A DNA stretch of 62,502 bases, the filler included, from Dugesia japonica (taxonomy: Eukaryota), in assembly GCA_001938525.1 (NCBI GenBank). It is 6 parts of 6 records of this genome, joined end to end, with 100 filler letters (N's around TTAATTAATTAA, not from the genome) between each part and the next. Parts side by side here need not be neighbours in the genome. Positions count along the whole stretch, not along the records: positions 1 to 11,027 come from MQRL01583221.1; positions 11,128 to 20,150 come from MQRL01340437.1; 4 more parts are not named here. The stretch is one strand, 5' to 3'. A program made the position numbers and the translations under genes. The notes under the pieces are model-generated. The model was not told where the DNA came from. It ran no database searches and worked only from the letters and a program-made list of their open reading frames with translations. Positions 1-29,260 of the stretch are shown here, in pieces. Numbering within the stretch: the first letter of the stretch is position 1; each line of letters starts with the position of its first letter.

Positions 1-2014
1 GGCCGCTGTTCCCCATACGAATCATTAAAAACACCAATATTAGATGGTTGTTAGTCAAAAAGAATGAACATGGTAATGAGAGGTGACNNNNNNNNNNNNN
101 NNNNNNNNNNNNNNNNNNNNNNNNNNNNNNNNNNNNNNNNNNNNNNNNTAGTAATGGCCATAACTCAAAATAATTGTCATAACAGAAATTGTGTGCAATA
201 GAAAATCATAGTAGTCTTATCAGTGACAATAAATAGTAGTGCCACTAACAAGGCCGATAACATAAATAAATAATTAAATTAGTAAAATTAAAATTTAATT
301 TAGTTTAAAAGTTGCACACGTTGTTGTCACTTGGCGACCTTTCTCCTTGACAACAGTGTGACATAATATATTAATTTGCCACCTGGGGTGTGCATCNNNN
401 NNNNNNNNNNNNNNNNNNNNNNNNNNNNNNNNNNNNNNNNNNNNNNNNNNNNNNNNNNNNNNNNNNNNNNNNNNNNNNATACTTTTCTTGTATCGTGAAT
501 TAATATGGTGGCAAACGAGTGATGTCTATTATTTAATGTCTATACACAACGGAGGTTGGAACTATATACTGATATTGGCAATTTAAAACTGGTGCCTTTC
601 AGAATTTCCCTGCTGCTGTCACATAGTGGATCTCTTTTTTTGATGGATTATAGCAGGATTTTATCAATTATCTGTGTGGAATTATTCTCGTGCATTTTCA
701 TCATATCAAGATTGTAACACGTTCGGAAACTAGTGGACAAACAACTTAACGGAACAGGGGATATTACTCACTGCGGTGTGTTATGTATTGAGAGGTTAGT
801 GAAACAATTTNNNTTTGATGTCACCGATAGAATAGTCGATTATTTTTAAATAAAAAGGTTTTGCTTTGAATTTATTTTTAATATACACTTATCACCATTA
901 TGTACATACTATCAATGATTTACAAAACATATTATTTATCCATCAATTTGATACCCTAATTTTTTCATGATTANNNNNNNNNNNNNNNNNNNNNNNNNNN
1001 NNNNNNNNNNNNNNNNNNNNNNNNNNNNNNNNNNNNNNNNNNNNNNNNNNNNNNNNNNNNNNNNNNNNNNNNNNNNNNNNNNNNNNNNNNNNNNNNNNNN
1101 NNNNNNNNNNNNNNNNNNNNNNNNNNNNNNNNNNNNNNNNNNNNNNNNNNNNNNNNNNNNNNNNNNNNNNNCCGAATTAACTTTTACTTTAACTGTTCAA
1201 AATAATTCGTTGGTTAATTTGCAATTCCGAAATAATAAATTACTGCGCGATAACTGATATAACCGTAACTTCTCGGTGATAAGAGACAAATTTGTGGTTA
1301 AACTTTTTCTGCTGCGTAACAATTAGAAATTTGTTGAGGGTTTTGATTGCGTTCTTGACTTGAATTAACTTGAAAAAAATAATGAATGTTTTCTGCTAAA
1401 ACCGAGGGTCCTTTTATAGGATTTTCTGATACACCCCGGCATCATTTTTATTGGCGGGTATTTTTGTTTTCGGATACCGGTGTCTTATTGGTGCTGGTCC
1501 CATGATTCCAAAATTTTTACAGAGTTTTAGAACTNNNNNNNNNNNNNNNNNNNNNNNNNNNNNNNNNNNNNNNNNNNNNNNNNNNNNNNNNNNNNNNNNN
1601 NNNNNNNNNNNNNNNNNNNNNNNNNNNNNNNNNNNNNNNNNNNNNNNNNNNNNNNNNNNNNNNNNNNNNNNNNNNNNNNNNNNNNCTCTTCTTGAATTTT
1701 CTTCACCGGATTCTCTCCGACTTTCCTGACCGGAATTATTTACCAAAAACAGATTTTACTTTAATTTTTTTGTTTAAATTAATTATTATTTTCTTGCATT
1801 CATTTCTTCATTGGATTTTTATTTTCTTTAATAATTTTAATAATTTTGTGATTTCTCTAATTAATCACATTGAGCTTGATCTTTTAAGTTTCTTGTTTAA
1901 TATTATTGATTGGTTTTTTCATTCTGGCTTCCTCCCTGGTTCTTTAATTTGGTACCGTTCATTTGTGACCCCTTTAACTTGGATTATCGTTCCTCGGGGT
2001 GTTTCGCCCCAACA
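1..2014 (-). mobile_element. 5' part of a giant-LTR-family element (relative of 14171-18573), cut by window start
   Basis: Minus strand begins TGTTGGGGCGAAACACCCC. About 1380-2014 is colinear with about 17850-18573 (shared ttttctgct.aaa, cagagttttagaact, atttgtg.ccc.tt.actt, gtttc.ccccaaca). Confidence 0.75.
1411..1495 (-). promoter_or_regulatory. LTR-type Pol II promoter (CCAAT boxes + TATAAAAG)
   Basis: Minus-strand TATAAAAG at 1411-1418 with two upstream CCAAT boxes. Same position as TATTTAAA/CCAAT in the 14171-18573 copy. Confidence 0.55.
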
Positions 2015-2189
2015 ATTGTGCGTCCCTAATATCTTCTTTTACGAAAGTTTCATCCGAATCCCTGCTGAGCCCCCGAAATTCTTGTTGGGGTTTTATCTAG
2101 GTGGGTTGATTTTTTCCATATAATTAAATCCATGGTGGTCGGCCTAGTAAAACCCCGCGGAGAATTTAATATGGTGTCCCCAAAAATCC

Positions 2190-2384
2190 AGATCTTCGGA
2201 ATGGAGCCGTAAAGAAGCAAAGGTCTCACATGAGCAAGAACGACTTTGGAAAGGTCAACTAGAGTCACTTGCGGAAATCATTTGGTACCTCTATGACCGT
2301 GAAAATAAACTGGTGGCGGACGTAATGGAGCTGCGGAACCCCATGCTACTCTAGCTCTTAATGGTAGACATGTCGACACAGACC
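2190..2384 (+). pseudogene. Giant-LTR cassette module B remnant
   Basis: Translates VSHEQERLWKGQLESLAEIIWYLYDRENKLVADVMELRNPMLL*LLMVDMSTQT. Homologous to 3152-3389, 9901-10236 and 14806-15126. Confidence 0.75.
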
Positions 2385-2434
2385 CCGCGTCCATAACTTG
2401 GTGTGATTCTCTTTTATATATAGAATAAAGTCTT

Positions 2435-3151
2435 TGTTGTACCTTTATGTATAGTATCGATTTGAAATGGTTGATTTATAATAATTGAATTGCATCTTAT
2501 CATTTGAATATAAATTTTATTCTTTTTATTTTAATTTTATATATATCAAATTTTATTATTTCTAATTTTATTTTTTAACTTAATGAATTTAATGATTTTT
2601 GCAATTCTATTTTCATGTGTATTAACAATTTCACAACGGAAAGAATAATAATAATCGGTAAGAACAGATTTATTGATTTTTGTAAACTGTTATAATAATT
2701 TTATGCAATTATCGAAAACTTTTATAAATATTTATTTTTAATTTGTAAATTTATTGGTAAACAATTACTCGAATTTTAGGTTTAGTGTGTAACGGCCGAA
2801 TGGCTGATTTAGTATAAATACGCTTATGAATTTTAGTTTTTCACCCACTTTTAAATCACAATAAAACCTAAGGTTTACAAAACCAACGCTTAGTGATAAA
2901 ATAATAACGTACCTGTCAAAGTTTTGTTAAAAAAATATAATTTTTTAAAGTAAATATATTATATTTTTACATAAGGTCGACACTATATAGTATATATATA
3001 AAAATATTCGTTATTTATAATAAAGATAATTTAAGGCTATATAAGGAAAAACATATAATTCTAATATACGATAATTGGATTATACTCTTCGTAAAATAAA
3101 TTCACGAAATTGTTGACGTAGGTTCGTAATAATCTTAAATCTATCCCAACA
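2435..3151 (+). mobile_element. Short solo-LTR family copy (5' boundary uncertain)
   Basis: Ends CCCAACA. Shares TAGTATAAATA, AATTTTAGT..CACCC, ACTATATAG and GTTGAC motifs with 3746-4598 and/or 30923-31753. TSD not convincing. Confidence 0.55.
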
Positions 3152-3389
3152 CCTCTATCGCCTCGAAAAAACGTAACTGGGAAGCTCAGATTGCTACAGA
3201 AAATGCCAAAAATAAATCCTATAAGAAAAGATGCTACGAATTACGTGAAGAGGCTTCTCTCACTCACACTCAAGAGTGCCCCTGGAAAGCTCAATTGGAG
3301 TCCTTCGCCGAGTTATTGTAGAATACGTCTTCAAATTAAAAGCTCGTGTATCCGTTAACCTTCTTGTAATAGACAAAGCAACCCAAACC
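3152..3389 (+). pseudogene. Giant-LTR cassette module B remnant
   Basis: LYRL/RNWEAQIATENAKNKSYKKRCYELR...THTQECPWKAQLESFAE...VIDKATQT, with frameshifts. Confidence 0.75.
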
Positions 3390-3506
3390 AAACATTTACG
3401 GTGTCATAAACAGTGTAAATAAATTATTATATACTTGATTGTTTCGTTCTTTAATCTGAAGTCATATTCTTTTGCTTAACGCATTGACCAATCTTGTTAA
3501 TTTTAG

Positions 3507-4645
3507 TACATACAGAACGATTAACTAGAAATTTAAATAAGTTCTATCGGTTGTTACGAGAACTCCGGCTAGAACGGCGGTATTATAAACAGCGGGAACG
3601 CATGTTGCTTCGTCACATCGAGATGAAGAACAAATTCATAAAACAATTTGATACCACTTATAAGAAACAGTCAAATCGTCTTTTAAGTAAGGTGCATTTT
3701 CTTACGCAATACATTTCCGATTTGCCAGCACGTTGCTGACAATAATGTTGTGGAAAGCAGACATTAAAATATAACAACATTAGCAGACATCAACATTAGC
3801 AGACATTAAAACATTAAAACATAACATTAAAAAGCAGAGCTTTTAAATATAACAACCACACACATATACAAAGACAAACACAAGCAATGAAAGCAAGCCA
3901 GAAACCGAATAATCAGCAGAGTGATCAATACAATCAATTCAACCATGCAGAACAATCAATCCAAGCAATTCAAAATACTTTGCATTTATCTGAATATCTT
4001 TTGTATTTATATTTGACATATTCTGTTGAACTTTACAAACTTTCATTTTATTTATTTGACATTATATTTTGTTATAAATTCTCAATTTATTTGAACTTTG
4101 TAAAATTTTAATATATTGGACTTTATGAATTTATATAATTATTAGATTTTACACTAAACAATTAATTGGATTTATTAAAATTATGAAATTTTTATTTATT
4201 TTAAAAGGATGTTTTTATTTATTTAATGTAATATTTTGATATTTCGCATGCATGATTAGACTGACTAAATAGTATAAATAGTCACCACAATTTTATTTTT
4301 TTACACCCCTTTTTTTTAATTATCAGAGAAGACTAATATCTTTTGATAACAGACTCGGAGAAAAATTAATTACTTGTAACGAACAGTATTTNNNNNNNNN
4401 NNNNNNNNNNNNNNNNNNNNNNNNNNNNNNNNNNNNNNNNNACTATATAGCCTATTTATATTTATATCATTCTATATATTAAACATATTAAGTCAAGATC
4501 ATTACATATATATTAATTGGATTTCATTTAAAAGTTTAAACAGAGCTCACGTAAAAATCGTTGATTTGCCTTTGTGAAATCCTAAAGACATCTCAAAAAT
4601 GAGGCAAAATTTAATTTTACGGAGGAAACACTGACAAATTTATAA
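3507..4645 (+). pseudogene. Giant-LTR cassette module C, split by a solo LTR
   Basis: ORF 3494-3739 (LLRHIEMKNKFIKQFD...FLTQYISDL) matches 14417-14800. The C-terminal EAKFNFTEE resumes at 4599 after the insertion. ttttag acceptor at 3506. Confidence 0.75.
3746..4598 (+). mobile_element. Short solo LTR inserted in module C
   Basis: Starts TGTTG and ends TCTCAAAA (CA mutated). Flanks ATAA/ATGA (decayed 4-bp TSD). Removing it rejoins the two halves of module C. Motifs shared with 30923-31753. Confidence 0.75.
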
Positions 4646-4864
4646 CCAATTAAATACAATGAGAATGCACAAGGGCGACATTGAAATGTAGAGCAGATGC
4701 AAATTACTGATTGACTAATTCAGAAAATTTAACTGCAATTTGATTCGCGGTTCAAGAACAAATATTTTAAAAACATTTCATCAATCAAATGCAGAAATAT
4801 TATTGGTTAACCAATCTAAACGCAGATAGTTTTAGTAACAAAGTTTAGATGAAATTAAATTAAT

Positions 4865-5868
4865 GGTAACCGGACAAAATGGTATTGGGCAAAATGGTAC
4901 GGACAAAATAGTATGAGAACAAAATTATAAGGATAAAATAGAGCATTCGAGCATGACAAAACAAATGGAAAAGATCATTTTTACATCATTGTAGTCTCAG
5001 TTGTAATAAATAAAAATACTAAAAAGATCATTACGCAAATGAAGCCAATATAAGTGAGTCATGCATGACGAAACAGATGAAAAATAAAGTTTATGTTAGT
5101 AATAGTAACTGGCTGCATGCTTCATTTTGGTCATTGCGTTTGGAAGAACGTGTAATCAGAAGGCTTCTTAGAATGTCATCGTGGTGAAACAGATTTCTGA
5201 TTTCTTGTCAAGCGTCTTACTTTAGCATCTATTCCATCCAATGACGTAATGTCTTTGAAATTCTCACTGCATATTCAGCATAAAGAGAAATCGAAGTAAT
5301 CTGTGATTATATAGAGAACAACTTCATCAGAAGACAAAGACGTCTATCGAGATTTTCGATTCAACTGTGGAATCAATATTCTAGAGTTATTGATAACATG
5401 NCCCGCAGCAACAATGCACTCGAGGGTTGGCATAATGCCTTCAACAACTTTCTTGGTTGGGCACATTCTTCCAATATTAATATGTCCAGAAAACTACAAC
5501 ACTCAACTAAATTGTAGACAACTGTAACTGAGAATAGCTTTCGGAAGGAAGAAAATCTAAGTTCGTATAAACGAAGCACTTCACAGTATGGTATCAGATT
5601 AAAAACCCGTGATCATATTATATATTTCGGAAAAATTTCACAAGTAATGTTTTGTGATGTGACGGCTACGAAACTGCACAAACTTTTCGCTTTATGATAA
5701 TCGATATTTTAAATGTTTAACAGTTTTGTTTACTAATTGTTTCCACCCTAATTAAAACTTTAAAAAGCACAATAAACTATATTATTTAAAATCGCATATA
5801 TGCACTATTTCTTGTTATAAAATAAATTAAATATATATATTTCTTCAATATCATTTTGTCCTAGAACC
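4865..5868 (+). mobile_element. MULE (Mutator-like) DNA transposon, internally deleted
   Basis: TIRs GGTAACCGGACAAAATGGTA / revcomp GGTTCTAGGACAAAATGATA. Flanks AAATTAAT/AAATTGAT. Transposase motifs GCMLHFGHCVW (~5111) and RSNNALEGWHNAFN (~5404). Confidence 0.85.
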
Positions 5869-6455
5869 AAATTGATGTGTTGAAAATATTAATAAATGAT
5901 TAGTTGACAAAAATATAATTTTCAACAATTAGTCAAAAGCGTGAGTAGAATAAATTAACCAATCAGAAGCAATGGTGAGGAAAATGGTGTAGAAAATTGG
6001 TATAAAAGCAATTGCAAATTTCATTTGTAAGCAAATTTTTTTAGTAGTGAAAATTTTGAGAACCAACCAAATCACCATGAGTAAGTGGAAATATTATTGA
6101 ACTGGAGATGTTATGCGCCGATGTATTGCGATTGCTGAACTGTTAGTAATATGATTCTCCCATTCCAAGTAGATATGCACAATGCATGTTTGTAGGCAAG
6201 TAAGTTTCACTGATTTCTATTTAGAATATTTTCATTCAGAATATNNNNNNNNNNNNNNNNNNNNNNNNNNNNNNNNNNNNNNNNNNNNNNNNNNNNTATT
6301 TTGTAACAGAATTGATTAAAAATTATTTATTTTTAATGTCGTTAATTAGTTTTACTGATTTATTAGTTGATTAGTAATAGTTAATTAAAAATTTTAATGA
6401 TAAGTTTGACTATGTGAGAGTGTTTGAGAATTAAGTGGTCATAATAAATACTAGA

Positions 6456-6480
6456 TATATATATATATATATATATATAT
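6456..6480. repeat. (AT)n microsatellite
   Basis: Direct inspection. Confidence 0.9.
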
Positions 6481-8544
6481 GCCTATGGTTTTCCTGTAAA
6501 ATTTCTGGATATATTGATAGTCGATCAACAATCAGAGTAAAATTCAAGAAATTACAGACAGTGTTGGGTCCATTGAAGCAATTTAATTTAATTTACTAGT
6601 CTAGGATAAAAGAAACTAGTGGAGACCTCTCTTTCTATGTGTTTTGGTTTGTATTCGTTATGATATTAACTTTTGAAAGCGGAATAACTTAGTCTAACAA
6701 CATTATGTTTTCTTACCATTACATAAGTTCACCATTATAAATAAGGTACTTTTAAAAGGTATCGAGTTCTAAAGATTATATAAATATACTATAGATTATA
6801 TAATAATAGACAATAGTCCGCTTGATTACATTCTTCTGCTTCCAATATATTAACCTCTTCTCGTTGCGTTGTGTTTTAGTATGATATACAATATAAAATA
6901 ACAAGAACTCTACTTTGGTATGCAGTCTGAAAACGTACACAGCAGGTATTGAACGGGGTCTTCAACTTCCTGCAGATGGTGCTATTCCCAGTTAAGTCCC
7001 CCATTTAATCTAATTGCTCTCTGACAATTGACCGTTCAGTAAAATACTGATCTACTGAAGTCGAGTTTGATTATTATTAATATTGAATTAGGCTATCCGG
7101 AAAGTTCTTTCGGTTTTTTACGATGCAATAGAAAGAATCATTAAACACACAGAAAATCTTGGTTCTAAAACATATTAGCTATTATTATCGACAATTTGTT
7201 ACCATCACTCTACCAATATCATGATTCTCTTTTCAAAAATTTTCAGATTTTGTTAAGTAAAATATGGTTCCATGTACGTTTTAATACTGCCATCTGAGGT
7301 AAACCTTTCGCGGCCAAAGAGGTTTGCAAAAACTGAAACAAAGTATTGTGGTGGTGCCATATCAATGTAGATGTGGCAGATAATCCTTGCCAGGTTCCAG
7401 TAATTTTTGTCAAGTCTTCAAAGATGTGTAAGGTTTTGCGTTGTCGTATTGGAAAAAAACACCTCCACAATTTACTAATTTTTGGAATTTCTGCTGAACA
7501 GGAATTTCGCCATAATAGAATTAGACAACGAAGTGAGATAGGAGTAGAAAAGATTAGTTGTTTGAAATGCAATTTGTTTTGTAAACCAAAGAGAATGTGA
7601 TGTTAAACAAGTTGAAAGGCTATATCAGTCGGAATCGTAGACAAAATCACCTGAAACGAGGTTTTCGATATGAGAATGGTGAAAAAATTAAAAGACTAGA
7701 AAAATGAACAAGAAACAGGAAAATAATAACTTAAGCTCGATAAAAATGAATAACAGACAAGGAGACGATACCATGAGAAATTCAGAGCTGTGCAAAATTA
7801 GATATGAAGAATTGAATATGACAGTTGACGGGTTAGATCAAGATATAGATGAACGAAAATATGAATATATAATAGTGAAAAGTGGTCTCCAATTATACAG
7901 GAACTAGTTGTAGCCGAATATTATTTATTTATTTTATACGAATGATATTGTCCTGTCCCATACTGAAGAAGAACTCACTTTAATTTATTTAATACTTCTG
8001 ACAACACAGGTGGCACAATAACGAATAAGACGCACTTCTAGAACGTATACCCCAAGATATGTGGCAGCAACCAGCTTTCTCCAAATGACCGAGCGACCCA
8101 ACGCCAAACTGCTAAACTGAAAAAACAGGCTGGAAACTCTTGCGAAGGTGGAATCCGCGATGTAGAGGCTCGTACCGTTTCTTGATACTGATGAGAATGA
8201 ATTTTAACCTGAAACGAACATTAGATGACCTAATCAATGACTTCATTCTGTTATCCTATTCTTGCTCTATTAACGAGGTTATAATATATGAAGCCGTTTA
8301 ACAAACGTTCAACTAAGTTGATTCAAAGTAAGCCTTTTCATCTTTATGTTGGTCTATCTAAATTGCTTAGATGACAAACTTTAGATGACGAACAAAGGCA
8401 TGTAGCGATTTTTACCATACGCAGTCTGAAGTCATCTAGAGCCACGATGACTCCATTATAATTAGCAGAGATAACTTTTATAAGTAGTTATAAATTTTTA
8501 TAATTAGGTGTTTGTTCAATTTTTCCTCATACTGATATTTTAAA

Positions 8545-8559
8545 TAATAATAATGATAT

Positions 8560-8618
<59 letters not shown>

Positions 8619-8724
8619 GTTTAATTAAAATAATTTAAATTTTAAATATNNNNNNNNNNNNNNNNNNNNNNNNNNNNNNNNNNNNNNNNNNNNNNNNNNA
8701 TTATTATTATTATTATTATTATTA

Positions 8725-8772
<48 letters not shown>

Positions 8773-8785
8773 GTTATTATTATTA
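8545..8785. repeat. (AAT)n and (ATT)n tracts either side of an N gap
   Basis: Direct inspection. The strand switch across the gap may be an assembly orientation artefact. Confidence 0.9.
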
Positions 8786-9482
8786 ATGTTACGATTTTTC
8801 TTGGTGTTGCTAGTCTATTTATTTCCAATATTATCATCATTAACATAATTAGTATTTAATCTTAATAACAACATTACGTTTAAAATCGATGCCAGTGTCG
8901 TTATTCCTGGTCAGTATTATTAATACCCATATGATGATTACTTGTCTTATTATCGCCATTATTCTTATTAATCCGATTATTGGGACGTTAAAATGATCCT
9001 TATTAATCCCTAGTCTTCATTCCGATTAATATCCTACCATGATCATTGCCTAGCTTAACAAACTTATTGCCATATTTTATTTTAGTATGACCTCTTCTTA
9101 ATTTATTTCTAGTGAACCCAAACACCAATTCAACATGGAAGTTATATCCGTTGGATGACGGCCTTAAGAAGAAAAAACCTATAATGAATCCGCACAACTT
9201 GTGCTTTGGCATTCTGACCGATAACTCAGATATGCCCCAGCTGAAAAAAGAGCCACGCAGGTCAACGATAAGTAAAAACTGGACTTCAGCCGAGGCTGGC
9301 ATTCGGGTTATACGATTTTTTCGGGCTCCTGTAGTCTCCCCAAACATGGTTTACTGAGGACTTAGAAGCTATACACTTTAATAGACTTGCTGTTAAATGT
9401 CCTATTAATATGATCTAAATAGAATACATGTTTTTGATCTTATTATTATTGCATTTCATTCTACCACTCATGTTCTAATCTT

Positions 9483-9761
9483 TTGTTTTTAAAAGTGTCG
9501 CAATATGGATGGCGCATTTACAACGACATCACTGGTCACACCATTTTCCGTAGGATCGATAATCCCTATGTGCGAGATGCTGGCATCTTCGTTGACCGCT
9601 CTAACATGCCATCAATAAACGAGGAACTACAACGTCGTGCAGATGAGGTCGAACGCTGGCTTTATCAACACTGGCCGGCAAGAGGAACACGGGTGGTTAC
9701 AGTTCAGTCGTCACCAGCTTCCCCTACTTCTTCAACTAACGTAAACGTCGAGAATTATTAG
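9483..9761 (+). CDS. Giant-LTR cassette module A (unknown function)
   Basis: GWRIYNDITGHTIFRRIDNPYVRDAGIFVDRSNM...ERWLYQHW aligns with WEVLWDRRMERTIFKKYKNPHERNAGVLVDYSNL...ERQAFYQW at 15338-15748. T-rich AG acceptor at about 9495. Confidence 0.7.
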   Translation: MFLKVSQYGWRIYNDITGHTIFRRIDNPYVRDAGIFVDRSNMPSINEELQRRADEVERWLYQHWPARGTRVVTVQSSPASPTSSTNVNVENY

Positions 9762-9900
9762 TTCAATGCTTTAGCTAATACAGTATTTAGGACTTAAGTC
9801 TACTTTTATCTAATTCGTAAATCATAAATAACTGCTTAATTAAATCGATCTGATTAGTTTCACATTGCTGATTTTATTTCGTGAACTCATCCTGTTACAG

Positions 9901-10236
9901 GTTGGTAGCACCAATTAAAAATCTCCGCACAGAATGCGACGAGGAGGAAAGGACATGAGACCTCTATCGTTTGGCGAAGCGGAATTGGGAGGTTCACGTA
10001 GCAGCGGAAAAAGGCAAAAAATAAGATTTACATAAAAAGCTGAAGAGAATATAGGATTGAAGCTAAACTCTCCCACCCCCAAGAGAGGGTTTGGAAATCC
10101 CAACTAGAATCGTTCACGGAATCAATCCGATTGCCCCTCGAGAGAAAATAAATTGGTCAACGATATCTCGACTTGCCGAAAACGAATACCGCTTGAACCT
10201 TTGCTGGTCGATAAGACTACCCAGACCCGTAATTGA
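9901..10236 (+). pseudogene. Giant-LTR cassette module B
   Basis: ttacag acceptor, then T*DLYRLAKRNWEVHVAAEK...SHPQERVWKSQLESFTESIR...ENKLVNDI...RIPLEPLLVDKTTQT. Contains stops and frameshifts. Confidence 0.75.
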
Positions 10237-10344
10237 CAGTGTTTTAATTATATGACTTTAATATACTTGTCCTTGTAGTTCAAATTTCTGAATTCATAAA
10301 TTTCCTAGTATATTATTCCTATATTTAATTTTCACCTAATTTAG

Positions 10345-10676
10345 TGCATCGCATCCAGTGTCTACGGAGTCAAACGATGCCACAAGTTATTGTGTAGTGT
10401 CATAATCGAATAATTTTGTGCAAAAAAGTGCGAACGCACCCTCATTCGTCATATTCAGCAAAAAAACCAACTTATCAAGAAAATAGAGTTGGTGCCTAAG
10501 AAGCAGCTGGTTATCGCCAATCGGACCGTGAATAAGCTGCTTAACAAGTCAATCTTCAGACACAATACATAGCAAATCTAACGACCAGACCAAATCTTCT
10601 CCCCACTAGTCCGTGGCACAGCTACGATGACGAAGCTGCGTTCAATTTCACGGATAAAGTTCCAGTATCATTTTAA
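10345..10676 (+). pseudogene. Giant-LTR cassette module C
   Basis: tttag acceptor, then CHKLL...LIRHIQQKNQLIKKIE...TQYIANL...WHSYDDEAAFNF. Homologous to 14417-14800. Confidence 0.75.
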
Positions 10677-10793
10677 TTGAACCATATTTTCTGGTGTACG
10701 GTTAAATAAATCTTACATGTTGTCTCACTGATATTATCTCTTACGATCACGCTTGAATTCAGGGGATTTTGAACCCGAAATCAAAGGGATAAT

Positions 10794-10966
10794 CGTATAA
10801 TACGCAAGTCATAATAAATTAAAATTTTATTAAGGAAAAAATATTGACATAATACGCACAAGCGTATAATACGCAGATATAATTTGTTTAAATTTGCGTA
10901 ATTTAAAATTTATAATTTAATAATTTAAAGTTATCTAACACGTATTTTCTGGCATATAATACGCGA
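10794..10966. mobile_element. Possible pogo/Tc1-type MITE terminus fragment
   Basis: Four ATAATACGC motifs. CGTATTTTCTGGCATATAATACGC resembles TACCGTATTT-type termini (compare 61799). Confidence 0.35.
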
Positions 10967-11071
10967 TTAATACTTAAATAGATATTTATTTTGATGTTTT
11001 AGATAAAAATCATAATGATTAAGGAAANNNNNNNNNNNNNNNNNNNNNNNNNNNNNNNNNNNNNNNNNNNN

Positions 11072-11083
11072 TTAATTAATTAA
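11072..11083. other. Artificial scaffold linker TTAATTAATTAA (also at 20195, 29740, 39416, 53582)
   Basis: Each is centred in an exactly 100-bp N gap. Stop-codon linker. Confidence 0.95.
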
Positions 11084-11399
11084 NNNNNNNNNNNNNNNNN
11101 NNNNNNNNNNNNNNNNNNNNNNNNNNNATTGTTGTTTACACAAAGAGGTGTGAGGTGAACTGTCAATTATCTGAGCCGGTTACTGCGTAACCACCTACTT
11201 CGCTCGTCCTATCAACAATACTTTAAAAAACTCATAAAATTAATTTGTTATCTACACTTTATTTCACTTGTCTTCCTCCTTTTCTTTCTCTACTGGTCTC
11301 ATCTTAAAACTTTATTTTGTATATTACGAATAAAGTTGATAGGTTTTAGGTTCGTTTACGGTCGGAATTTGAGAAAAAGAAAGATATGGTCAATGATTT

Positions 11400-12200
11400 T
11401 AAAATTTCGATTAACTAAAGACGTGTTCATGTAAAAAGTAAAAAGAATTTAAGTAAAGATTATTTTCGAATTAAGAGTTTACAACGGAAAACATTATAGA
11501 AAAGATGCTCGTATTTTGTGAAGATAATAAAATGTTCGAAGAAGTGAATTGGTGGTAAACATATGAGCGGGAAAAAATACATTCTTGAAATTATTGGCCA
11601 GTTCAATAAATATCTAGCTCTTATCACATTGCCTAGGCAAGATAAGGAAATAATACGAAAAGCCATTTTGGTAAGTGAATATTGAGATTTAGAAGCTCAA
11701 GATAGATAGAACTAAATTTGGAAAACACTCCAATTACAGAGTTGTGAGAGAGTTTGCACAGAAGATAAATATTAAACTTTGCTTTTTAGTCCGTATCATC
11801 ACAGTGCAAACAGAAAAATTGAAACTCAGTTTACAATGATTTGAGATTTAAGTAATGAGGGATATCAAATTAGGCAGACATATTATTGAAAATAGAATTT
11901 ACGATGAACAGAAAACGACTGAAAAATAATTTGGAAAGAGAATCAGCAGAGACAAATGGCACTAATCGAATGTATTAGAAAAAATTAAAGAAAAAAATTC
12001 AGAAGTAACTATCAATAGAGAATGTAAAATAGAAGATTACGTCCTTATCAAGTTAGAAACATCAAATAAAAGCTGAGATCGATTTGAATGTTCTTATCTT
12101 ATAATTGAGAAAATTCACTAAAGTCTGTATATTGAACAAGGAAAAAATGGAAAGCGATTGTAGAGAAATGTAGATAAACTTATAGAATTAACTCACTCAA
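11400..12200 (+). pseudogene. Degenerate Gypsy integrase
   Basis: SPYHHSANRKIETQF (~11789, integrase SxYHPxxNGxxER motif). Decayed GPY-like FECSYLIIEK (~12083). Many stops. Confidence 0.65.
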
Positions 12201-12353
12201 TAAAACAAATAAATATTGTTGAGAATATTCTGTATATCTATAAGCCTAAAGTCTTTCTAGGAGTAACTTGATTCATAGTCTTCTATTTCATTTAATTACT
12301 TTATTCTATTCACTTACTCTATTCGATTCACTTATTCTTAATACACTCTATAC

Positions 12354-12836
12354 CATTGGTGGCTAACCCAAATGATCTTCTGGGTAACTTTGGAAATGCA
12401 TCATAACTCCGTGGGCCTCATATAAAATTATAACCCTATATTTGATTTAGACCCTTAATAGACATTTTTTGGAGTTAAAAATTATAACAATATGAATTAT
12501 TATTATTGTGTTTACTATTATTCTTACATGTAAACGTAGATAATATAATAATGATTTTAAACGCGCATATATAATTTAATCTTATAATTACAGTTTTTTT
12601 AATAAATATGCTTAACTTAAAAGAAATCATTCTCAATTTATATGATTTCCTGGATTTTAATGAAATTCTTAAATTGAATGATTTTAATGAACATGCGATC
12701 GTTCATCACACATAAGTTTTCTCTACTTTGGTCATTATAAAATAAGTATATTTTTTAAAAGTGTGATGAATCTCGCGGGCTGGAAAAATGTCCAGAAGAG
12801 TAGCATGCTGTCCGGGGCCTCGTGTTGCCCACCGTG
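12354..12836. mobile_element. Non-autonomous hAT element (MITE)
   Basis: Ends CATTGGTGGCTAAC / GTTGCCCACCGTG with GC-rich subterminal GGGCC motifs. 8-bp flanks CTCTATAC/CTCCATAC. Confidence 0.7.
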
Positions 12837-12849
12837 CTCCATACATTTA

Positions 12850-13900
12850 CCCAATTCCCAGATTTAATTAAATCATTCAATACATCTAGTCAATCTATTT
12901 AAATCATACTATATACTTAATCCACTCACTGAAGACAATAAAATACATTCAATAAAATAAATTCAAAATACATACAAAAATCATCGAAAATGGATTCAAA
13001 TAGCTGTGCTTCGTCTGGAGATTTTATAATTTCTTTAGTTCTACCAGTAAAAACTTTCATTTTCTGATAATTTTCACAACTTTGTACAATATTTCTTATT
13101 ATGTTTGTCATATCTTTCATATAAAAATTATTTTCAAAATACTTTTCAACCTTTTTATGTTCTGTATGACATAATTTATTGTAATAGTTTAAAACGACTT
13201 TTTCTCGTTTACACTCAAGTATCCATATTTTATTAAAAATAGTCTTCACAACACCATTATCACTTTTAAATTGACTTTCCTTAATTTCTATTGAATCTTT
13301 TTGCCAAATATTTTCTTTCTCATTGGTCATCATAGCTAATATTATTGTCTTGAAGTTAGCAATTTATGGGTCTGGATGTATCATTTGACATTGCACACAT
13401 GATGAACATTCTCTTCTTGGCATTGCATCTGCATTTCTATGTATTTCTCCCTTTCGGAATTTCATATCAATATCTAAGCTACTTAAATAATTCACCCACG
13501 TTTGAATTTGAGGTTTAAGTGATTGTTTTGTTTTTTATCATAAACGTAATGGCTTTCAGATCTGTCCTTAACAAAACTCGTTTTCCATACAGGTAATGTT
13601 TGAATTTATTTGTAAAGAAATAAATAGCTAATAATTTCTTTCTAATTATACAGTAACCCAATTCATGCTTGCTCATTGTATGTAATCATCATCTTGTAAT
13701 TGTGATAATACAGCTCTAATTCTGTCGAAGCTAGCATCTGTATCTAGTATTAAAGTTTTCTCGAAATCTGGATATGTCAATACTTGAGTTGAACGTAATT
13801 TATTTTTAATACTTTGAAAGCTTTTTTCACATTCTTCATTACAGATTAATTTTTTGTATTACGTCCACATAAAATTTCCAAAGGTTTCTGTAATTCCCAT
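12850..13900 (-). pseudogene. Gypsy pol remnant (RNase H to integrase N-terminus)
   Basis: Minus strand shows VLTYPDF..ILDTDASF..AVLSQ and HRNADAM. ORF 12926-13333 has a decayed HHCC zinc finger. Confidence 0.8.
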
Positions 13901-14416
13901 TAAACATAATAAAATTCATGAAATTAAAAGTTTCAATTATTCTTTTGTTTTTTCTATTTAGATCTTTTTTAGTGGTTATCCGAAATTTTCAGGAATTTCT
14001 GAAGAAGATGATTGTCAAAGATTTGGATAATTACCAAAAATAGAAATAAAAAGAAACAAAACAATATTTCGATCGAAGCTTTTAATTTAATGAAATTAAT
14101 TTAATGATTAATGGTTAAATCCAGCAATTATTTATTCAATAATTGTAGTTATAATACAACTCAATACATTTGTTGGGGTTCCACCTGAGTGGGATAGTAA
14201 GAAAAGGGTGGCTGGGGAAAAACAGCCTTCAGGGAACCCTTTCAAGAATTTAAATCCAATGCCCCTCAGTTGGATATTCAGTGCAGAGCGGTTGACCTTC
14301 GACCTTTACGGGAGGTTCACACTCGTACACCTTTAATTTGGGTTCATTAATTTCCATATTAGACATAGATACAACATTAGACAAAAGTTATCAAAAACAT
14401 CTATTATCATTACAAC

Positions 14417-14800
14417 TTATAGGTCTTCCAATACATCAGGATCTAACCACTGGTTCGGGTCAGTCTCCCAAAAGTCAAACGCGGCTAAATCGTCATTGTC
14501 ATCCCACTGTGCCCAGACAGGGTTTCCCATTTGGCTTGACAGGTCGGCTATATATTGCTTTAGGAATTCTATTTTCCTTTGCAATAGTTGTTGGGTTTCG
14601 GTTGCCAGGGCCTTAGTTTGGTTTGCTAAATCACTCTGTTTCTTTATTATGTTGTCAAGTTTTTTAATTACCCTATCACGTTGATTTAAATGCCTCAATA
14701 AAGCTTTATCTGTCTTTCGTTTCAAATGGCGCTCCACCAACAGACGGCGCATTATATGATGACATCGGAGGAGGCTGTTAGGGAAGTTGATACGAGGCAC
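14417..14800 (-). CDS. Cassette module C: basic/coiled-coil segment with acidic-aromatic tail
   Basis: Open 127-codon frame beginning at a tttcag acceptor. Homologues at 3507 and 10345. Confidence 0.7.
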   Translation of the reverse strand: MPRINFPNSLLRCHHIMRRLLVERHLKRKTDKALLRHLNQRDRVIKKLDNIIKKQSDLANQTKALATETQQLLQRKIEFLKQYIADLSSQMGNPVWAQWDDNDDLAAFDFWETDPNQWLDPDVLEDL

Positions 14801-14805
14801 TGAAA

Positions 14806-15126
14806 TAATGGTTTGAGAGGGATTTTCTCCCGGAGCAGCAAGATGTCACTAACCAGTTTATTTTATCGGTCATGGCTGGACCGGATCATCTCTGAAAAAG
14901 ATTCTACCTGCTTTTTCCAGTCACGCTCTTGTAAATGGGAGGCCTCTGCTTCTTTTTTAAGAGTACGCATTTTTTCTTATATCGAAGAACTTTACTATTC
15001 GCCGTTGCCACCTCTGCCTCCCACCGTTGCTTGGCGAGCCGGTAGAGATCCCATGTTATTTCGCGGTCTTCACTAGTATCCCGCATCTTTTGGTGGGGGC
15101 TGAGGGACAATTTAGTGATGAGTGCA
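14806..15126 (-). pseudogene. Cassette module B (frameshift, stop, TQT tail deleted)
   Basis: ITWDLYRLAKQRWEAEVATANSK../ASHLQERDWKKQVESFSEMIR..DR*NKLVSDILLLREKIPLKPL. ttgtag acceptor. Confidence 0.75.
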
Positions 15127-15337
15127 CTACAAAATATACATATTATCGTGAATAACACTTAGAATTCTATAATTAAAAACAGGCATGTTAATGATAAGTC
15201 TGGCTAACGATTACCGATAGTAAGCTTACGAGATCTACCTACGAATTGAAAACAAAAAATATTTCTTTGATAACCACTCAAAACATCAAACATTTATTTC
15301 CGTCAATGTAGAACAAGAAAACGCCGAACTCATCTCT

Positions 15338-15748
15338 TTATGGCAACGGGGTTGGTTCATTATTTTTTAACGCTCCGCCACTAGCTTGATTCCGTATATT
15401 CCATAAGGTATTCCCAACGTCTATAGAGAATCTTGTGTTCCGGGGAAGATGGTTAATCGACACAGGCAATAATGTGGGACCATCCTGCCAAGTACTAGTG
15501 ATCTGGTTAAGTACGGATTCGATGGTGGTAGTTCGATGTAACACGTCTTGAGTGCGATCAGGGCCTTTCCATTGGTAAAACGCTTGACGCTCTGCTGCGG
15601 CCCATTCTCTTTCATTGTCAGCGTCTTCACTAGACAAGTTGGAATAGTCCACTAAGACACCCGCATTGCGCTCATGAGGATTCTTATACTTTTTAAAAAT
15701 GGTTCGTTCCATGCGTCTATCCCATAACACTTCCCATACGTGGTCCAT
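15338..15748 (-). CDS. Cassette module A (136 aa, unknown function)
   Basis: Open ATG ORF, GC-richer than its flanks, homologous to 9483-9761. ttgtag acceptor 10 nt upstream. Confidence 0.7.
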   Translation of the reverse strand: MDHVWEVLWDRRMERTIFKKYKNPHERNAGVLVDYSNLSSEDADNEREWAAAERQAFYQWKGPDRTQDVLHRTTTIESVLNQITSTWQDGPTLLPVSINHLPRNTRFSIDVGNTLWNIRNQASGGALKNNEPTPLP

Positions 15749-17880
15749 TTATCAATTTCTACAATAAAGAGCAATTTTAGTACAGAAACATAATATGATA
15801 ACGGAAACATAATGACGATGAGAGTTGACCCATGCAAGTAGATTTATAAATCAAAATATACGAAGTGAAGGTACTGATTTTATTTGAACTAAAACATATT
15901 CAGGGATGGCTTTTATAATGAAATTTCATTCTTCATCGAGATCCACTGAGACGGATAGAGAAAACATCTCCGCGAAACACGCTTAATCGGTTTCGTCGGG
16001 ATGTTCCACGCGATGTGGAAATAATAAATGTCCGATTAATTGACGCGTCCGGGAACGTTTGCGTTCCCGCAGAATCAACCAAAGGGTTCTTAGCAATATG
16101 TTGGACATAGGTTATCTAAAGAAAAACATGTCAACATTAATACCCCATGCTCGATAAATTGATACCAGTTATCATGTATAGTAATAATATACATCACGTC
16201 GCTATTAGTGAAAGGGTCAGACATATCTTTACCTCCCCAAGGGTAATGAGAACTGAGATCTATAAGTATAGACGCAATAACAGAAATAGGGATATAAAAT
16301 GATAATTACAGACCTCAGGACATAAGACTCCCTACTGTGTCATTTGAATTTATATCATTAATGTGCAGGGTATTGCTATTAATAGGAAGCATTTTTCCGG
16401 TGAGTATCAATATAATATTGGCATATGATAATTGAGATTTACATATTTATTTTTTTTCGTATTAATCGGTAATAAAAGAAAATAGTGTAAAAACATCTAT
16501 TTTTCCCCATTTTGAATTGGGCGGTGATTGATCACTTGGCAACTGAAGGCTAATAACAGTCTGCCAATAACACTACACCCGCACACACCACCATCAATAA
16601 AGAAACAGCTGAACAGGCAATGCGGGCCAGATTCTACACACCTCATTTACCTCAACTAGTCAGGATGAATTACCGTCATATATTTTTTTTCATATCTTCA
16701 TAACACCAGTAATCGTGGTAATAGCCGTCGTAATATTAATACAGTTAATGATCATTTTAACACGGATGAAAGAAATAACATCATTTTGATAGGCATACTA
16801 GAGTTAATACCGATAATAAAAGATAATACGGGCTATTTATAATAATAAGTAATATATCGATGGTCATAAAATCGCAAATAATAATCGATTCATTCTGAAA
16901 TTTCTTGTAATACGGTAAATGATAGTAACGGGATGATATTTAATTTGACACTCATTTTCAATTACGAATTGGTAATTACATCTACTGATAGGTTTTACTA
17001 GAACTAAAAATCAGNCATACATATGCAGCCTGATGCTGCAAGAAAATATAGATAGATGTGCATCCGGCGTATGTGTGTTAATGGNGGTTATTAGACAACT
17101 TAGGTTGCTACCCAAAGCATAGAGATAGTGTGTATTACATGAACCGGAGTCGTGTGCAGACTAAAAGGGCAAACTGGATGATGGATACAACCTGTATTGT
17201 GCAAAGTGACCTGGGCACATGATTAGCTATGCTTATTTTAGGAATTTGAGATCTGTTGAAAGGCGAAACATGCATGCCAAAGTATTCTCTTTCTGTGGTT
17301 GAGGCGACTAATAATCACTGTGCATGTCCTAATTGAAAAGTGAACGGCAATATAGACATTGTTAACAGGTGGCATGATGGATTAAAAAAAATCTTTTTTC
17401 TTTTAAAACTCGTTTTCAGATAACCTCCATATTTATTATCAATTATCTAATCAATGGGTTATAATTAAGTTAACCAATAGATATATTTATCAATACAGAT
17501 TTATTCATTAATTTTATTTAACGACACATCATATAATATTTAACATTAAAAATCAATTTCTTTCATAAACAATTACTTACTATCAAATTCTGCAACGGAA
17601 TGATTTTCAATAATAAAAGCGATTCTTTTATTCTGCTATCTTAGTCACTATTTTTCTTCTTACAAATCAACCTTTTTCGATGAATCCTGATTTCGTTTTA
17701 ACTGCGACTACAATTACGATTTTTCTCTTCTATAAAATTAATGATTTGATGAAAAATGATTTTCTATAATAATTGTCCGTTTACGTGGTAAGTTCAATTT
17801 CTTTGATATACAAAATTGTCTGTACTCTGTATATTAATTTATGAATAAATAAGTGCTCTTTTCTGCTTAAAATCAGGGGG

Positions 17881-18015
17881 TTTAAATACCGTTTTACCAG
17901 ACACCCTGACATGTTTGATATTGGCTGGTTATTTTTAGTTTCATTCTTCTGTCTTTGATTGGTTTTGGTGCCAATTTTCTGTAATTTTTTCAGAGTTTTA
18001 GAACTCTAATTGGCC
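17881..18015 (-). promoter_or_regulatory. Promoter of giant LTR (CCAAT x3 + TATTTAAA)
   Basis: Same position as the promoter at 1411-1495. Points toward modules A-B-C. Confidence 0.5.
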
Positions 18016-20056
18016 GTTATTTTTAGGACCTCATGTGATTCCTGGTGCTTTGTCTTATCTTTATTTTCTGAATCCTTATTGGCCACCTCTTTAGATCCAG
18101 GTAGCATCCTTCTGGTTCAAGGTATATTTTTTTTGTGGATAAATTTCAATTTCTATGCTGTTGTTTCTTCGAATTTTTCTTGCTACAAGGTCCTGAAGTT
18201 TCCGTGGACGGAGTTATTCGTGGAAAACTGATTTTGGTTTAATTTTAATTTATTTTTCGTTCGAAATTAATTAACGCTTTCTGATAATTAATTATAATAT
18301 TTTCTTTATATTTTATTTATTTCTATTAATAATTTCTTTGATTAGTAAAATTGATATGGTTGGCTTTGATCGTCCCAACTCTTTGTCTTTACCCTTTCGG
18401 TAGTTTCTTTATTCCTTTCATCATAATTTAGTCCTTCGTGATTTTCTGCGCCTACTTATCTTGTCATTTTCCTTCAGCGTTGATTGATATCTTCTTTTAC
18501 TTTAAACTATTAATTCTTCTTAATTTGTGCCCTTTTACTTTAGCCAATTACGACTGGGCGTTTCACCCCAACACATTTAAGATGCTCGATTAAACAAATA
18601 AATTCATTAAATATAATAAAACTAATACGCTTATTTTATACAATACACTAAATAAATCAAGTACATTTTTCCATCCATATTTTTGCCTTATTGCACCGAA
18701 AACTCGTTTAGCCAACATATTCTAATGAGTTTACTCATTTTTGTTTACTTAAAACAACATTATTAATGATTAAAGTAATAACATGAAAAGAAATTAGATA
18801 TTCATATATATCCACATAGAAAATATGAATTCAGAGTTGACTGAATCAATACCTGCCACCATCTTCGTGAGATAAAAGAAAAGACAAATGAAAGAAATCC
18901 GTTAAAAATGTAATGAAAATTTAAAACCACAGCTCCAAAAAGCTAAGAAAAAGGACCGGAAATTAGAAGAAAAGGCGTCGGCATATCGAGAACAAGAATC
19001 TTTATTGCAAACGCGACCAACACTTGCTCAAAATACTAAATAAGTAGGCCAACCGAAAACAATCCGTGTTTCATAGTTTGAAGTACCACACATATGAGAG
19101 TCGAAATTAAAAACAGTTAAATAAATTTTGTAGTATTAACAGATATTGAAAACCGATTATCAATTAAATTTTGTATTGCTAATACATCTTGCATGTAATT
19201 AAATACAGACCTCATAGATTCAGAGTTTAGTACAAGGAGAACATGTAAAAAAGACAAAAAAAGCCCCTTAATATTACATCTGTGTCGAACGCACTTCATT
19301 AACAAAACGAAACCACTAGAAACTTACCTCATCAGTTCCGAAAAAAAGAGAACTTTGTGAGAAATTCAAAGTTCCTGTGATGACTCCAAAGACGTACTCT
19401 GAGCAAACAGTCATAAATACTTGTGGTTTTTAGAATGGATGATTCTAGTCAAAATATTTTACTAGGTAAAAAAGTTTAAAGCCGGAACGAAACTTATGGA
19501 AACCAAACAAAATGAATGGCTTAATTTGAATTATATACAATGGGAATAAGGTAAAATATATAAAATAAGCTAAAACTTTGACTTGCTGGATTCAAACCAA
19601 AGGATGAGGTCATGCATTTCAAATAATGGATTGGAGTAATTGGAACAAATCTGGGGATGAACTTAGGACATTCGTAAAGATTTGTAATTTTTTGAAGATT
19701 TATCTAGTCATAGAAAATTAACCAGAATAAATAATCCAATCGAACCAACGTGCTGGACATGAAAAAGTATTTATGGATTTGAGAANNNNNNNNNNNNNNN
19801 ACAATTGTAGAAAGCTGGCCTCTCGAATTTGCCAGAAATGTAAGAGTTACGGAAATTCGAATTAATTTTATTATTTTTATTTAATAAATATTCTAATCAG
19901 TTAGTTGTTATTGAAGTTTGATAGTGCGCAAGGATATTGTAACTGACAACCATACCAGAACTGTAAATGCGGTGACAAGGCAACAGCATCAGCAGAAAGC
20001 AATTTTAGATGCGTTTCCAAAAAAAGCGAGTAGGTAGATAGTGGCGCACTGTATCA

Positions 20057-20072
20057 CCCCCTCCCCCCCCTC
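20057..20072 (-). other. Polypurine tract preceding a 3' LTR start
   Basis: Minus strand GAGGGGGGGGAGGGGG is immediately followed by TG (TGATACAG at 20056). Same strand as the Gypsy pol at 21413-23630. Confidence 0.65.
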
Positions 20073-20378
20073 AAGCTCAAATTTTTTCAAGGTCGATGAT
20101 ACAGTATACCTGTATCTGATTGGTCCGTGATTTAGTATACTCAATTCTTANNNNNNNNNNNNNNNNNNNNNNNNNNNNNNNNNNNNNNNNNNNNTTAATT
20201 AATTAANNNNNNNNNNNNNNNNNNNNNNNNNNNNNNNNNNNNNNNNNNNNAACTTGTTTTTCGTTATTACGATCCTGGTTTTTTTTCGCTCTTTATTGCA
20301 ATATTTTGATCTGATTTCACTTTGAATTTGGCTATTTGTAAGATCTCGTTTCTTTTGTTCTACATTGATCCATAATAA

Positions 20379-21412
20379 CTAAATCTCTGTGCATAAAGTA
20401 ATTTGACAACTTCCACATAATTTCTTTGCTGTTGTCATGTTGATTGGACATTTTGTAGGTCTGAAATTTTTACAGTTTCCTTCTACGTTCCATGGTGAAT
20501 GCGCTTCTTTGTTTTTGTCTATCTCGAATCGATTTAGTTTATTAAATGTCCATCTTTCTTTTTGTCTCATCGTAATTCGTAGACATGGTTTACCCAATGG
20601 TTTCCAGTTGTCTACGGATCCGTGTCCTTTCATTCCATATCGTCCACATCTTGGATTGTCGCATATTCGATTTTCTTGAATTATTCCAATTTCCACTGAA
20701 TGACAATATTTATATCTCGTATAAGTATATCTTGTCTATTTTCAATTATAGTTAGATCATTATTCAGCAGAAACTTTTTCATGATCTCCTTAGTTGATAG
20801 TTCAATACTTACTATTAGTGGTTTTGCTGCCGATAAGCCTGTTAAATGATTGAAGACACATCTAACTTCACTACTTATTATTTGCCTCGCATTTGTTATA
20901 CAATTACTACACGATTGTTTATATTTCTCCTTGGACATGTTTAATTTTATTACCACCTCNNNNNNNNNNNNNNNNNNNNNNNNNNNNNNNNNNNNNNNNT
21001 CTCTCCATACTTGCAATGATACTCGCTTAAGTTCTCTATCCACATGTACAATTTTATCTTGTGTCGTTCGTAAACATTGGTAACATATCTTTAACAATTG
21101 ATTCTTTATCAAAGTTTCTGTCTCTTGTCTCGTTTTGTTACAGATTTTACATAGATAAGTTTCTTTGTTTGGTTCTAGAGTCCCCAAAATTCCTTCTCTT
21201 GCTTTTGCTGATAACATCATTACACGATGTATTGATCTGATTGGATATCTCTGTTCCGCATTTGGCTTGTCTAATTTAAAGCGAACTCGTTTCAATTTAT
21301 GCATTTCCGGTTCTGCTTTCACTAGATTTTCTTTATCTGTTTCGATTTCCTTGGCTGCTAATTTACATCTTGGTACATGTACGATACTTGGTTTCTTTAG
21401 TTGTTTTCCCAA
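20379..21412 (-). pseudogene. Cys-rich C-terminal extension of Gypsy Pol
   Basis: ORF 20681-21412 is in frame with integrase ORF 21413-21889, separated by one stop. Motifs CKIC, CYQC, CSNC, then CDNPRC and CGSC in 20379-20696. Confidence 0.6.
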
Positions 21413-23630: not shown

Positions 23631-23699
23631 GGTTTCCCTGCTGAAAATCCTGTTTTCTCTTTATCTGCTTCTTCTGTTTTAATTCTCTAATATCTTGTA

Positions 23700-29039: not shown

Positions 29040-29260
29040 GAAGCGAGTATTATGTATTAACACTGGATGATAGTGAATATTGTACAGTTTGTATGTTAAG
29101 AGTTGTTGATATTGAGTATTGTGTATGTTAATACTAGATGATAGCAAGTATTGTTCATGTTAAAAGCTGTTGATATTGAGTATTATGTATGTTAAGACTT
29201 GATGATAGCGTGAGTTGTGAACTATGTATTAAAACTTATGATAGCGAATATTATACTAAG
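29040..29260. repeat. Degenerate ~30-35 bp minisatellite
   Basis: Repeated GAGTATTATGTATGTTAA.ACT.GATGATAG-like units. Confidence 0.7.

Follow-up and report, generated by a model that had tools for sequence, protein, structure and literature searches.

The 62,502-nt stretch of the Dugesia japonica genome analyzed here (assembly GCA_001938525.1, six parts joined by filler; hereafter the window) contains, between positions 2190 and 15748, several diverged copies of a cassette of short protein-coding modules, termed A, B, and C, which we regard as almost certainly an element-borne coding cassette that was once under selection. On balance, we further favor the reading that the modules are retrovirus-style accessory genes of an undescribed family of retrotransposons with long terminal repeats (LTRs), their expression and function being deduced from anatomy. 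The evidence comprises the window itself, four public sequencing runs mapped onto the third cassette copy, and database searches. The mapping target was restricted to positions 13950 to 17010, with copies 1 and 2 lying outside of it, and the summed depths reported below do not correspond to copy numbers.

A first-pass annotation had proposed an element-encoded protein family under purifying selection, and both parts of this proposal held up. Over 545 aligned codons and ten pairwise comparisons, which are not independent since the blocks overlap, differences at codon positions 1, 2, and 3 amounted to 0.43, 0.29, and 0.65, respectively, the ratio of nonsynonymous to synonymous differences (pN/pS) was 0.42 (range 0.29 to 0.52), and amino acid identity was 0.47, while synonymous sites were saturated in 9 of the 10 pairs. 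Because the blocks had been picked by protein alignment, neutral divergence combined with best-block picking was simulated 200 times as a control. These simulations gave pN/pS values of at least 0.59, identities of at most 0.40, and a gap between positions 3 and 2 of at most 0.16, compared to 0.36 observed. The observed values are outside the simulated range, and the codon constraint is therefore real. A pN/pS of 0.55 was also obtained for the antisense mirror frame, as expected for a shadow of third-position bias; the acceptors and the amino acid identity favor the stated coding strand over this frame. Purifying selection on the module proteins is thus supported, as selection in the past and not in the present, because the copies in the window have decayed: all four B copies and the C module of copy 2 are disabled by stops or frameshifts. 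Furthermore, 8 of the 9 read differences listed within open frames of copy 3 (among 40 listed of 500 differences) are nonsynonymous, which is consistent with drift of this copy.

Comparison of the window against itself by tblastx and tblastn recovered every module copy that had been listed, i.e., four of B, three of C, and two of A, together with the A-B-C order in both full copies and the quoted amino acid motifs. Within the window, E-values of the main pairwise module blocks range from about 1e-5 to 1e-12, with weaker values for shorter fragments, and profile searches of the six-frame window revealed no additional module copies. Amino acid identity between copies is 34% to 60%, and the GC content of modules is 37% to 48% compared to 18% to 31% for spacers. 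Copy 1 consists of two plus-strand fragments. Copy 1a is B only (2190 to 2396, 5′-truncated, with one stop), while copy 1b is B-C, with B (3152 to 3400) beginning directly after an LTR-like end (CCCAACA at 3151) and C (3507 to 3739) being followed by an LTR-like start at 3746. Copy 2 spans 9113 to 10679 on the plus strand in the layout A′-A-B-C, comprising an open A′ (9113 to 9357), A with 87 open codons (9496 to 9761), B with stops and frameshifts (9882 to 10236), and a frameshifted C (10345 to 10679). Copy 3, with the layout A-B-C, reads from 15748 to 14417 on the minus strand; its A (15338 to 15748) is an open frame of 136 amino acids, its B (14806 to 15126) contains frameshifts and a stop, and its C (14417 to 14799) is open over 126 codons. 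Some details of the earlier inventory needed revision: copy 3 was correctly located but lies on the minus strand, so that 14417, 14806, and 15338 mark 3′ ends; the B module of copy 2, placed at 9901, extends upstream to 9882, where it matches the beginning of the copy 3 B module; and the three-module cassette exists but has a fourth member that had been overlooked, A′, an added paralog of A (tblastn E 0.002 versus A of copy 2).

In the position corresponding to A′, copy 3 is accompanied by an exon-like, GC-richer block (15900 to 16125, minus strand, 42% GC) behind a T-rich AG, which is common to many relatives. The A profile does not detect it, and pairwise comparisons with the A family gave P values of 0.05 to 0.09. 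The sequence NP..AGTQT at 16088 was considered as a second LC8 site in an A-like module and dropped, as this module is not detected by the A profile. Separately, short stretches that resemble LTR pieces, beginning in TG or ending in CA and all including TAGTATAAATA, were observed at 2784 to 3151, 3746 to 4385, and 30923 to 31480; the former two abut copy 1b, and no flanking duplication was seen for either.

Two observations support an element-encoded cassette: a public run contains diverged relatives in the thousands, and copy 3 has element-type ends on both sides. The run (X3), whose type is not on record, covers 30 of 30 bins of the mapping target with 8,504 contig pieces on 3 kb, of which 388 show an identity of at least 99%, 1,276 of 95% to 99%, 3,553 of 90% to 95%, and 3,287 below 90%; these pieces derive in part from an unrelated repeat at 14045 to 14097. 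Summed depth reaches 77,292 in the 3′ half of B, 25,000 to 35,000 at the downstream end of the unit described below, and 16,702 at 15907 to 16009, while it is only 43 to 154 over 16113 to 17010. Pieces and depth together point to a large, diverged family, with no copy number implied. The repeat at 14045 to 14097, which adjoins this unit, is short, has very high depth and A-rich loose ends, and takes most of the mapped RNA reads.

Copy 3 is enclosed by a 4,403-bp unit (14171 to 18573, minus strand), a candidate solo LTR. The exact word TGTTGGGG occurs six times in the window, and two of these occurrences, at 14171 and 18573, lie on either side of copy 3 in facing orientation. The TG..CA ends of the unit match in inverted orientation over 9 bp (TGTTGGGGT), and the same 4 bp (AATG as read on the minus strand) are found on both flanks (single-trial P 0.006, one insertion). 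Moreover, contigs of relatives include three joints whose matched side begins at 14170 to 14171, as expected for an element boundary. Neither an integrase nor a reverse transcriptase was seen inside the unit: no integrase match to Pfam was found among the selected frames scanned, and tblastx did not detect anything there resembling the Gypsy pol of the window. The short inverted TG..CA ends, the 4-bp duplication, and the lack of an enzyme inside fit a solo LTR; judged by these sequence features, an LTR is likely the carrier of the cassette, and a solo LTR is the simplest reading of the unit.

Within the unit, a TATA-like box (TATAAATAG, 16833 to 16841, minus strand) is located upstream of the cassette. 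A poly(A)-like signal, ATTAAA (14332 to 14337, minus strand), lies 80 nt past the C stop, with about 160 nt remaining to the unit end. Both are consensus matches only in AT-rich DNA. Read starts or ends did not pile up around these sites in the mapped runs. In copy 2, AATAAA (at 10705) follows the C stop by about 25 nt. A second copy of the upstream end of the unit was found at 1364 to 2014 (minus strand), with the same terminal word and hairpin as the 18573 end. A block of 170 bp at 1364 to 1534, common to both diverged unit copies (versus 17833 to 18005, minus strand; blastn 69% over 175 nt, E 9e-18), is possibly an enhancer or a structured element. By sequence match, a third, truncated occurrence of the upstream terminal word and hairpin is present at 29622 to 29643 (plus strand). 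Finally, at 2059 to 2090 (minus strand), a CCCCAACA end is followed by a tRNA-Pro-type sequence resembling a primer-binding site (PBS), a motif that was compared with excerpts of PMC10309623.

The starts of the modules suggest how they could be expressed. Eight modules retain their 5′ end, and five of these, three in copy 2 (A′, A, and C) and two in copy 3 (B and C), begin at a T-rich AG that is directly followed by TG (AG|TG). Throughout the window, TG follows 42 of 680 T-rich AGs, resulting in a P value of 4e-5 for 5 of 8, although for a pattern noticed post hoc. The phase is the same in 7 of the 8 modules, with the conserved frame coming after the two bases past the acceptor: in five, it follows directly, while in C of copy 2 and B of copy 3, only the first residues, which match those of the sister copies, precede a frameshift. 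For C, the acceptor phase is identical in 3 of 3 copies, as had been reported. The sharing of TG by acceptors of unrelated proteins would most simply be explained by a leader ending in A, which would complete an ATG; given this A, the first residue of the copy 2 A module would be a Met that aligns with the genomically encoded Met of the copy 3 A module. One long spliced protein is rendered less likely by the separate stop of every module and by the out-of-frame overlap of B with the C acceptor in copy 3. Thus, of the two splicing models raised by the first-pass annotation, alternative acceptors on a common leader fit better than a single spliced protein, while supporting reads were found for neither. 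We lean towards separate mRNAs with a start codon split by splicing. Trans-spliced leaders ending in AUG were set aside as the source of the ATG, since such a leader would put the modules out of frame. Because most module open reading frames (ORFs) do not have a genomic ATG, they are easily overlooked by gene callers.

With respect to the proteins, the motifs listed earlier for B are present, but its end had been overlooked. In all three copies that retain this end, it contains a DxxTQT sequence, a motif of the LC8 type (VDMSTQTP in copy 1a, IDKATQTK in copy 1b, VDKTTQTR in copy 2), with synonymous codon changes between copies. DxxTQT occurs four times in the six window frames versus a mean of 0.2 in 30 shuffles. 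The rules for LC8 binding given in the excerpted text of PMC6607443 are a TQT anchor preceded by a polar residue at -4 and a large one at -3, with proline absent from the upstream part of the motif. The B ends fit with D at -4, K or M at -3, and the TQT anchor, and the favored +2 residue is found only in VDMSTQTP. LC8 typically stabilizes homodimers of clients with adjacent helices, as it does in the fly piRNA silencing complex (PMC7919418, in part). From these residues, B is predicted to bind LC8 through its end, and we consider this probable, while a role of B in countering silencing appears unlikely. A resemblance of the AG(I/V)xVD core of A to an LC8-type strand was also noted, but this core is devoid of the central Q and no such site is claimed.

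For C of copy 3, the structure model consists of a single helix (residues 7 to 89) with a mean confidence score (pLDDT) of 83. The first 50 residues include 14 K/R, and a tail of 37 residues contains 11 D/E and 10 W/F/Y/L without any K/R; part of this acidic-aromatic tail is retained in copy 2, and C of copy 1b is without it. As modeled, the layout resembles that of a dimeric activator, and a function as a transactivator is a tentative suggestion that we hold at somewhat less than even. A bZIP profile was not matched by C, for which only weak generic coiled-coil matches below the cut-off were obtained in Pfam, and the basic-helix-acidic layout is a resemblance only. The structure model of A was unusable (pLDDT 38).

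The first-pass annotation could not assign the family; a match to a known host or transposable element protein was looked for and did not appear. Word-index protein searches with C, with the B profile at longer lengths, and with the A profile gave nothing at E 0.01. HMMER with the B profile against 1.84 billion representatives returned a single match, to a repetitive protein of 3,128 amino acids, which was rejected as a repeat artifact, since an 18-residue match was summed over 10 repeats. No usable match was obtained with A and C in the ESM Atlas, and none at the cut-off level in Pfam for the 9 module frames (among 64 frames scanned). PHROGs, searched with 8 proteins, gave 4 weak matches, all on C, and the best E-values of a PDB sequence search were 0.054 for B and 0.15 for A. 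The C model had no match in BFVD, which is uninformative for a single helix. Viral contigs contained nothing matching B, A, or the B pattern, and metagenome contigs nothing matching the B pattern. The three protein families are thus without homolog in these protein, profile, structure, and contig searches.

In the mechanism that we propose, A′-A-B-C would be small, once-selected protein genes of a highly repeated mobile element, and they would likely be situated in the transcribed portion of a 4.4-kb retrotransposon LTR. One leader ending in A would be spliced onto alternative AG|TG acceptors, so that an ATG would be built for each gene and separate mRNAs would arise. Binding of LC8 at the DxxTQT end would dimerize the helical body of B, as LC8 does for other clients, and C, given its basic N-terminus, long helix, and acidic-aromatic tail, would regulate as a dimer in the nucleus, e.g., as a transactivator. 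The cassette would then represent a regulatory or counter-defense module aiding expression of the retrotransposon in its host, like the accessory genes of complex retroviruses. No part of invertebrate retrotransposons is understood less well than their accessory genes, of which the few studied, namely CERV, proved essential for the element life cycle. LC8 would provide a concrete host target that is also used by the transposon-silencing machinery of flies. A bolder version, in which the LTR itself is built as a multi-gene cluster, a leader A serves up to four genes, the solo LTR is self-contained, and B recruits or soaks up LC8 to blunt silencing, seems improbable to us; if true, every solo LTR would be a self-contained gene cluster, with B turned against the LC8 hub that dimerizes the fly piRNA silencing complex.

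Coding ORFs in or overlapping an LTR have precedents in sag of mouse mammary tumor virus and nef of human immunodeficiency virus. These are single ORFs in retroviral U3, in contrast to the several acceptor-led ORFs downstream of a putative TATA box considered here. The accessory ORFs of walleye dermal sarcoma virus lie outside the LTR. This virus, as far as described in the parts of PMC3185748 consulted, expresses several small accessory ORFs from separately spliced subgenomic RNAs, one of them with an acidic activation domain. Both features recall the cassette, but it is a vertebrate retrovirus, and its Orf A has a cyclin fold; gene duplication in its relatives, the WEHV viruses, is cited there in a reference title. 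Another comparison is CERV of Cer1, a Ty3/Gypsy element of Caenorhabditis elegans, which according to the excerpted PMC10309623 is a lineage-restricted accessory protein without homologs that is made from a spliced mRNA. The likeness includes the spliced accessory protein, a predicted leucine zipper, and the tRNA-Pro type of PBS, while the cassette differs in having three to four short ORFs apparently inside an LTR. A split start codon is known from env of springer-subclade errantiviruses, where an AU dinucleotide completes it at the splice junction (bioRxiv 10.1101/2023.08.03.551782, in excerpt); there, AU is joined to one env ORF, whereas here, a single A would be joined to the TG of up to four small ORFs, none of which is env-like. 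The giant Gypsy elements Burro and Ogre share multi-kilobase LTRs (1.9 to 6.5 kb in Ogre), thousands of copies, and extra ORFs with the putative carrier (PMC6431247, in part), and extra ORFs are also reported for rotifer elements (PMC5408684, in part). The extra domains of Burro and Ogre (MATH, BIR, BCL2, ankyrin, env) are, however, located in the internal region, and none of these Pfam domains matched A, B, or C. B is similar to Panoramix-type LC8 clients, Panoramix itself being a client with a TQT anchor (excerpts of PMC6607443 and PMC7919418), in that DxxTQT adjoins a predicted helical dimerization region, with binding of B being predicted only. By analogy, the cassette may work like CERV, the walleye dermal sarcoma virus ORFs, and the additional ORFs found in Burro, Ogre, and rotifer elements, while belonging to none of them by sequence. 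The literature searched, which included few subscription papers, held no description of several acceptor-led ORFs with a split start codon inside a retrotransposon LTR, and a search for LC8 motifs in retrotransposon proteins gave only the paper on the host silencing complex. Repeat databases may already contain this family as an LTR without annotation.

Several observations weigh against this interpretation. The functions of the modules rest on anatomy. In two raw RNA runs (X22 and X21, sampled at about 25% and 6%), 440 and 16 partial reads were found, nearly all of them left of 14362, depth on the copy 3 modules was at most 2.1 and 0.7, respectively, and no joint had read support among the 15 of 19 joints listed. 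Contigs of a further run (X8) covering A and B were not counted as expression, as X8 is only guessed to be RNA. No RNA data set was listed as containing the cassette, which counts neither for nor against expression. Three modules deviate from the start pattern, namely B of copy 2 (CG|TG, i.e., without the A of AG), C of copy 1b (AG|TA), and A of copy 3, which uses a genomic ATG 10 nt past a T-rich AG; furthermore, neither a donor nor a leader exon was identified in the window. B of copy 3 is without the TQT end, and TQT motifs yield false positives, with 7 of 19 predicted peptides having bound LC8 (PMC6607443, in excerpt). Within the window, no gag-pol is tied to the LTR-like ends of the copy 3 unit. 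For copies 1 and 2, neither ends nor a duplication could be found, and their upstream sequence shows a weak likeness to the copy 3 unit (3 of 200 and 0 of 30 shuffles). Similarity between the PBS-bearing end at 2083 and the 14171 end is not significant (its score, with the terminal word removed, is attained by 16 of 200 shuffles), and the adjacent B of copy 1a is oriented the opposite way, an arrangement that we cannot explain except as nested debris.

The missing link to gag-pol would also suit a different carrier: the 4.4-kb unit could be an entire non-autonomous DNA element, Ginger-like or otherwise integrase-mobilized, with the cassette as cargo. Ginger elements have TG..CA ends, 4-bp duplications, in some cases introns, and a span of 2.6 to 7 kb, but their terminal inverted repeats measure about 40 to 270 bp (PMC2836005, in part), compared to an inverted match of only 9 bp here. 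Since no integrase was found in the selected frames scanned inside the unit, and the CCCCAACA end with its PBS-like site indicates that the terminal word is used by an LTR-type end in this window, we consider a DNA element unlikely. Slightly less probable still is that copy 3 is flanked by its ends and duplication through coincidence or nesting, and that the cassette belongs to an accessory region internal to a large Gypsy element, similar to Burro or Cer1, or to an endogenized DNA virus. The window is indeed full of nested fragments, and pieces of copy 1 abut other LTR-like ends; however, the 4-bp duplication sits on the facing pair 14171/18573, matches of relatives begin at 14170 to 14171, and neither the viral contig collection nor BFVD gave matches.

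About equally doubtful is a single protein with A, B, and C as its exons, the shared phase then reflecting phase-1 introns. All acceptors are in one phase, the spacers are intron-like in GC content, and the sequence near the B ends offers GT sites in a fitting phase, but no conserved donor is evident at the A end. Moreover, every module has its own stop, copy 3 has B entering C in another frame without an intervening intron and an A with its own ATG, and a single protein would have no need for TG behind the acceptors of modules that are unrelated. We judge it very improbable that the modules form an expanded host multigene cluster instead of mobile element cargo. The promoter, the acceptors, and the poly(A)-like signals resemble those of the host, and purifying selection has acted on the modules; against this, all B copies are disabled, copies of either orientation lie amid transposon debris, diverged relatives number in the thousands, and coverage by poly(A) RNA is close to nil. 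Accessory genes of an LTR retrotransposon thus remain the reading that we prefer.

The window as a whole is AT-rich (20% to 39% GC per 2 kb) and consists mostly of transposon debris. Gypsy pol pieces with Pfam matches to reverse transcriptase and RNase H as well as integrase are located at 12926 to 13858 and 21936 to 23660, and the Pfam scan also revealed a piece resembling an integrase at 32367. A decayed Gypsy element at 20379 to 24300 (minus strand) contains approximately 350 extra codons after the integrase, part of which resembles a C4 zinc finger (PF06689; E 4e-4, short of the cut-off), and beside it, a G-rich polypurine-tract-like run (approximately 20055 to 20072) is followed by TG. 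Fragments at 29950 to 36420 (plus strand) with a P-loop ATPase motif, integrase, and capsid-like frames have only a weak rve match in Pfam and are presumably of the Polinton/Maverick type. We take a broken frame at 26131 to 28000 (plus strand), which had no Pfam match at the cut-off, to be a hAT-like transposase, and related fragments at 41761 to 42304 and 45650 to 46800 presumably correspond to a Penelope GIY-YIG endonuclease. An inverted duplication of 296 bp with 93% identity connects 45653 to 45948 with 46508 to 46803, and minisatellites with periods of 32 bp and about 19 bp are found at 29061 to 29218 and 48783 to 49114. Identical TTAATTAATTAA islands between runs of N occur three times (11072 to 11083, 20197 to 20208, and 29740 to 29752) and are probably a masking or assembly artifact. 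Rfam (positions 1 to 30000) and a tRNA scan of the whole window gave zero matches. Finally, a host exon of the Delta/Serrate type is present at 56152 to 56445 (plus strand; DSL domain, E 1.7e-16).

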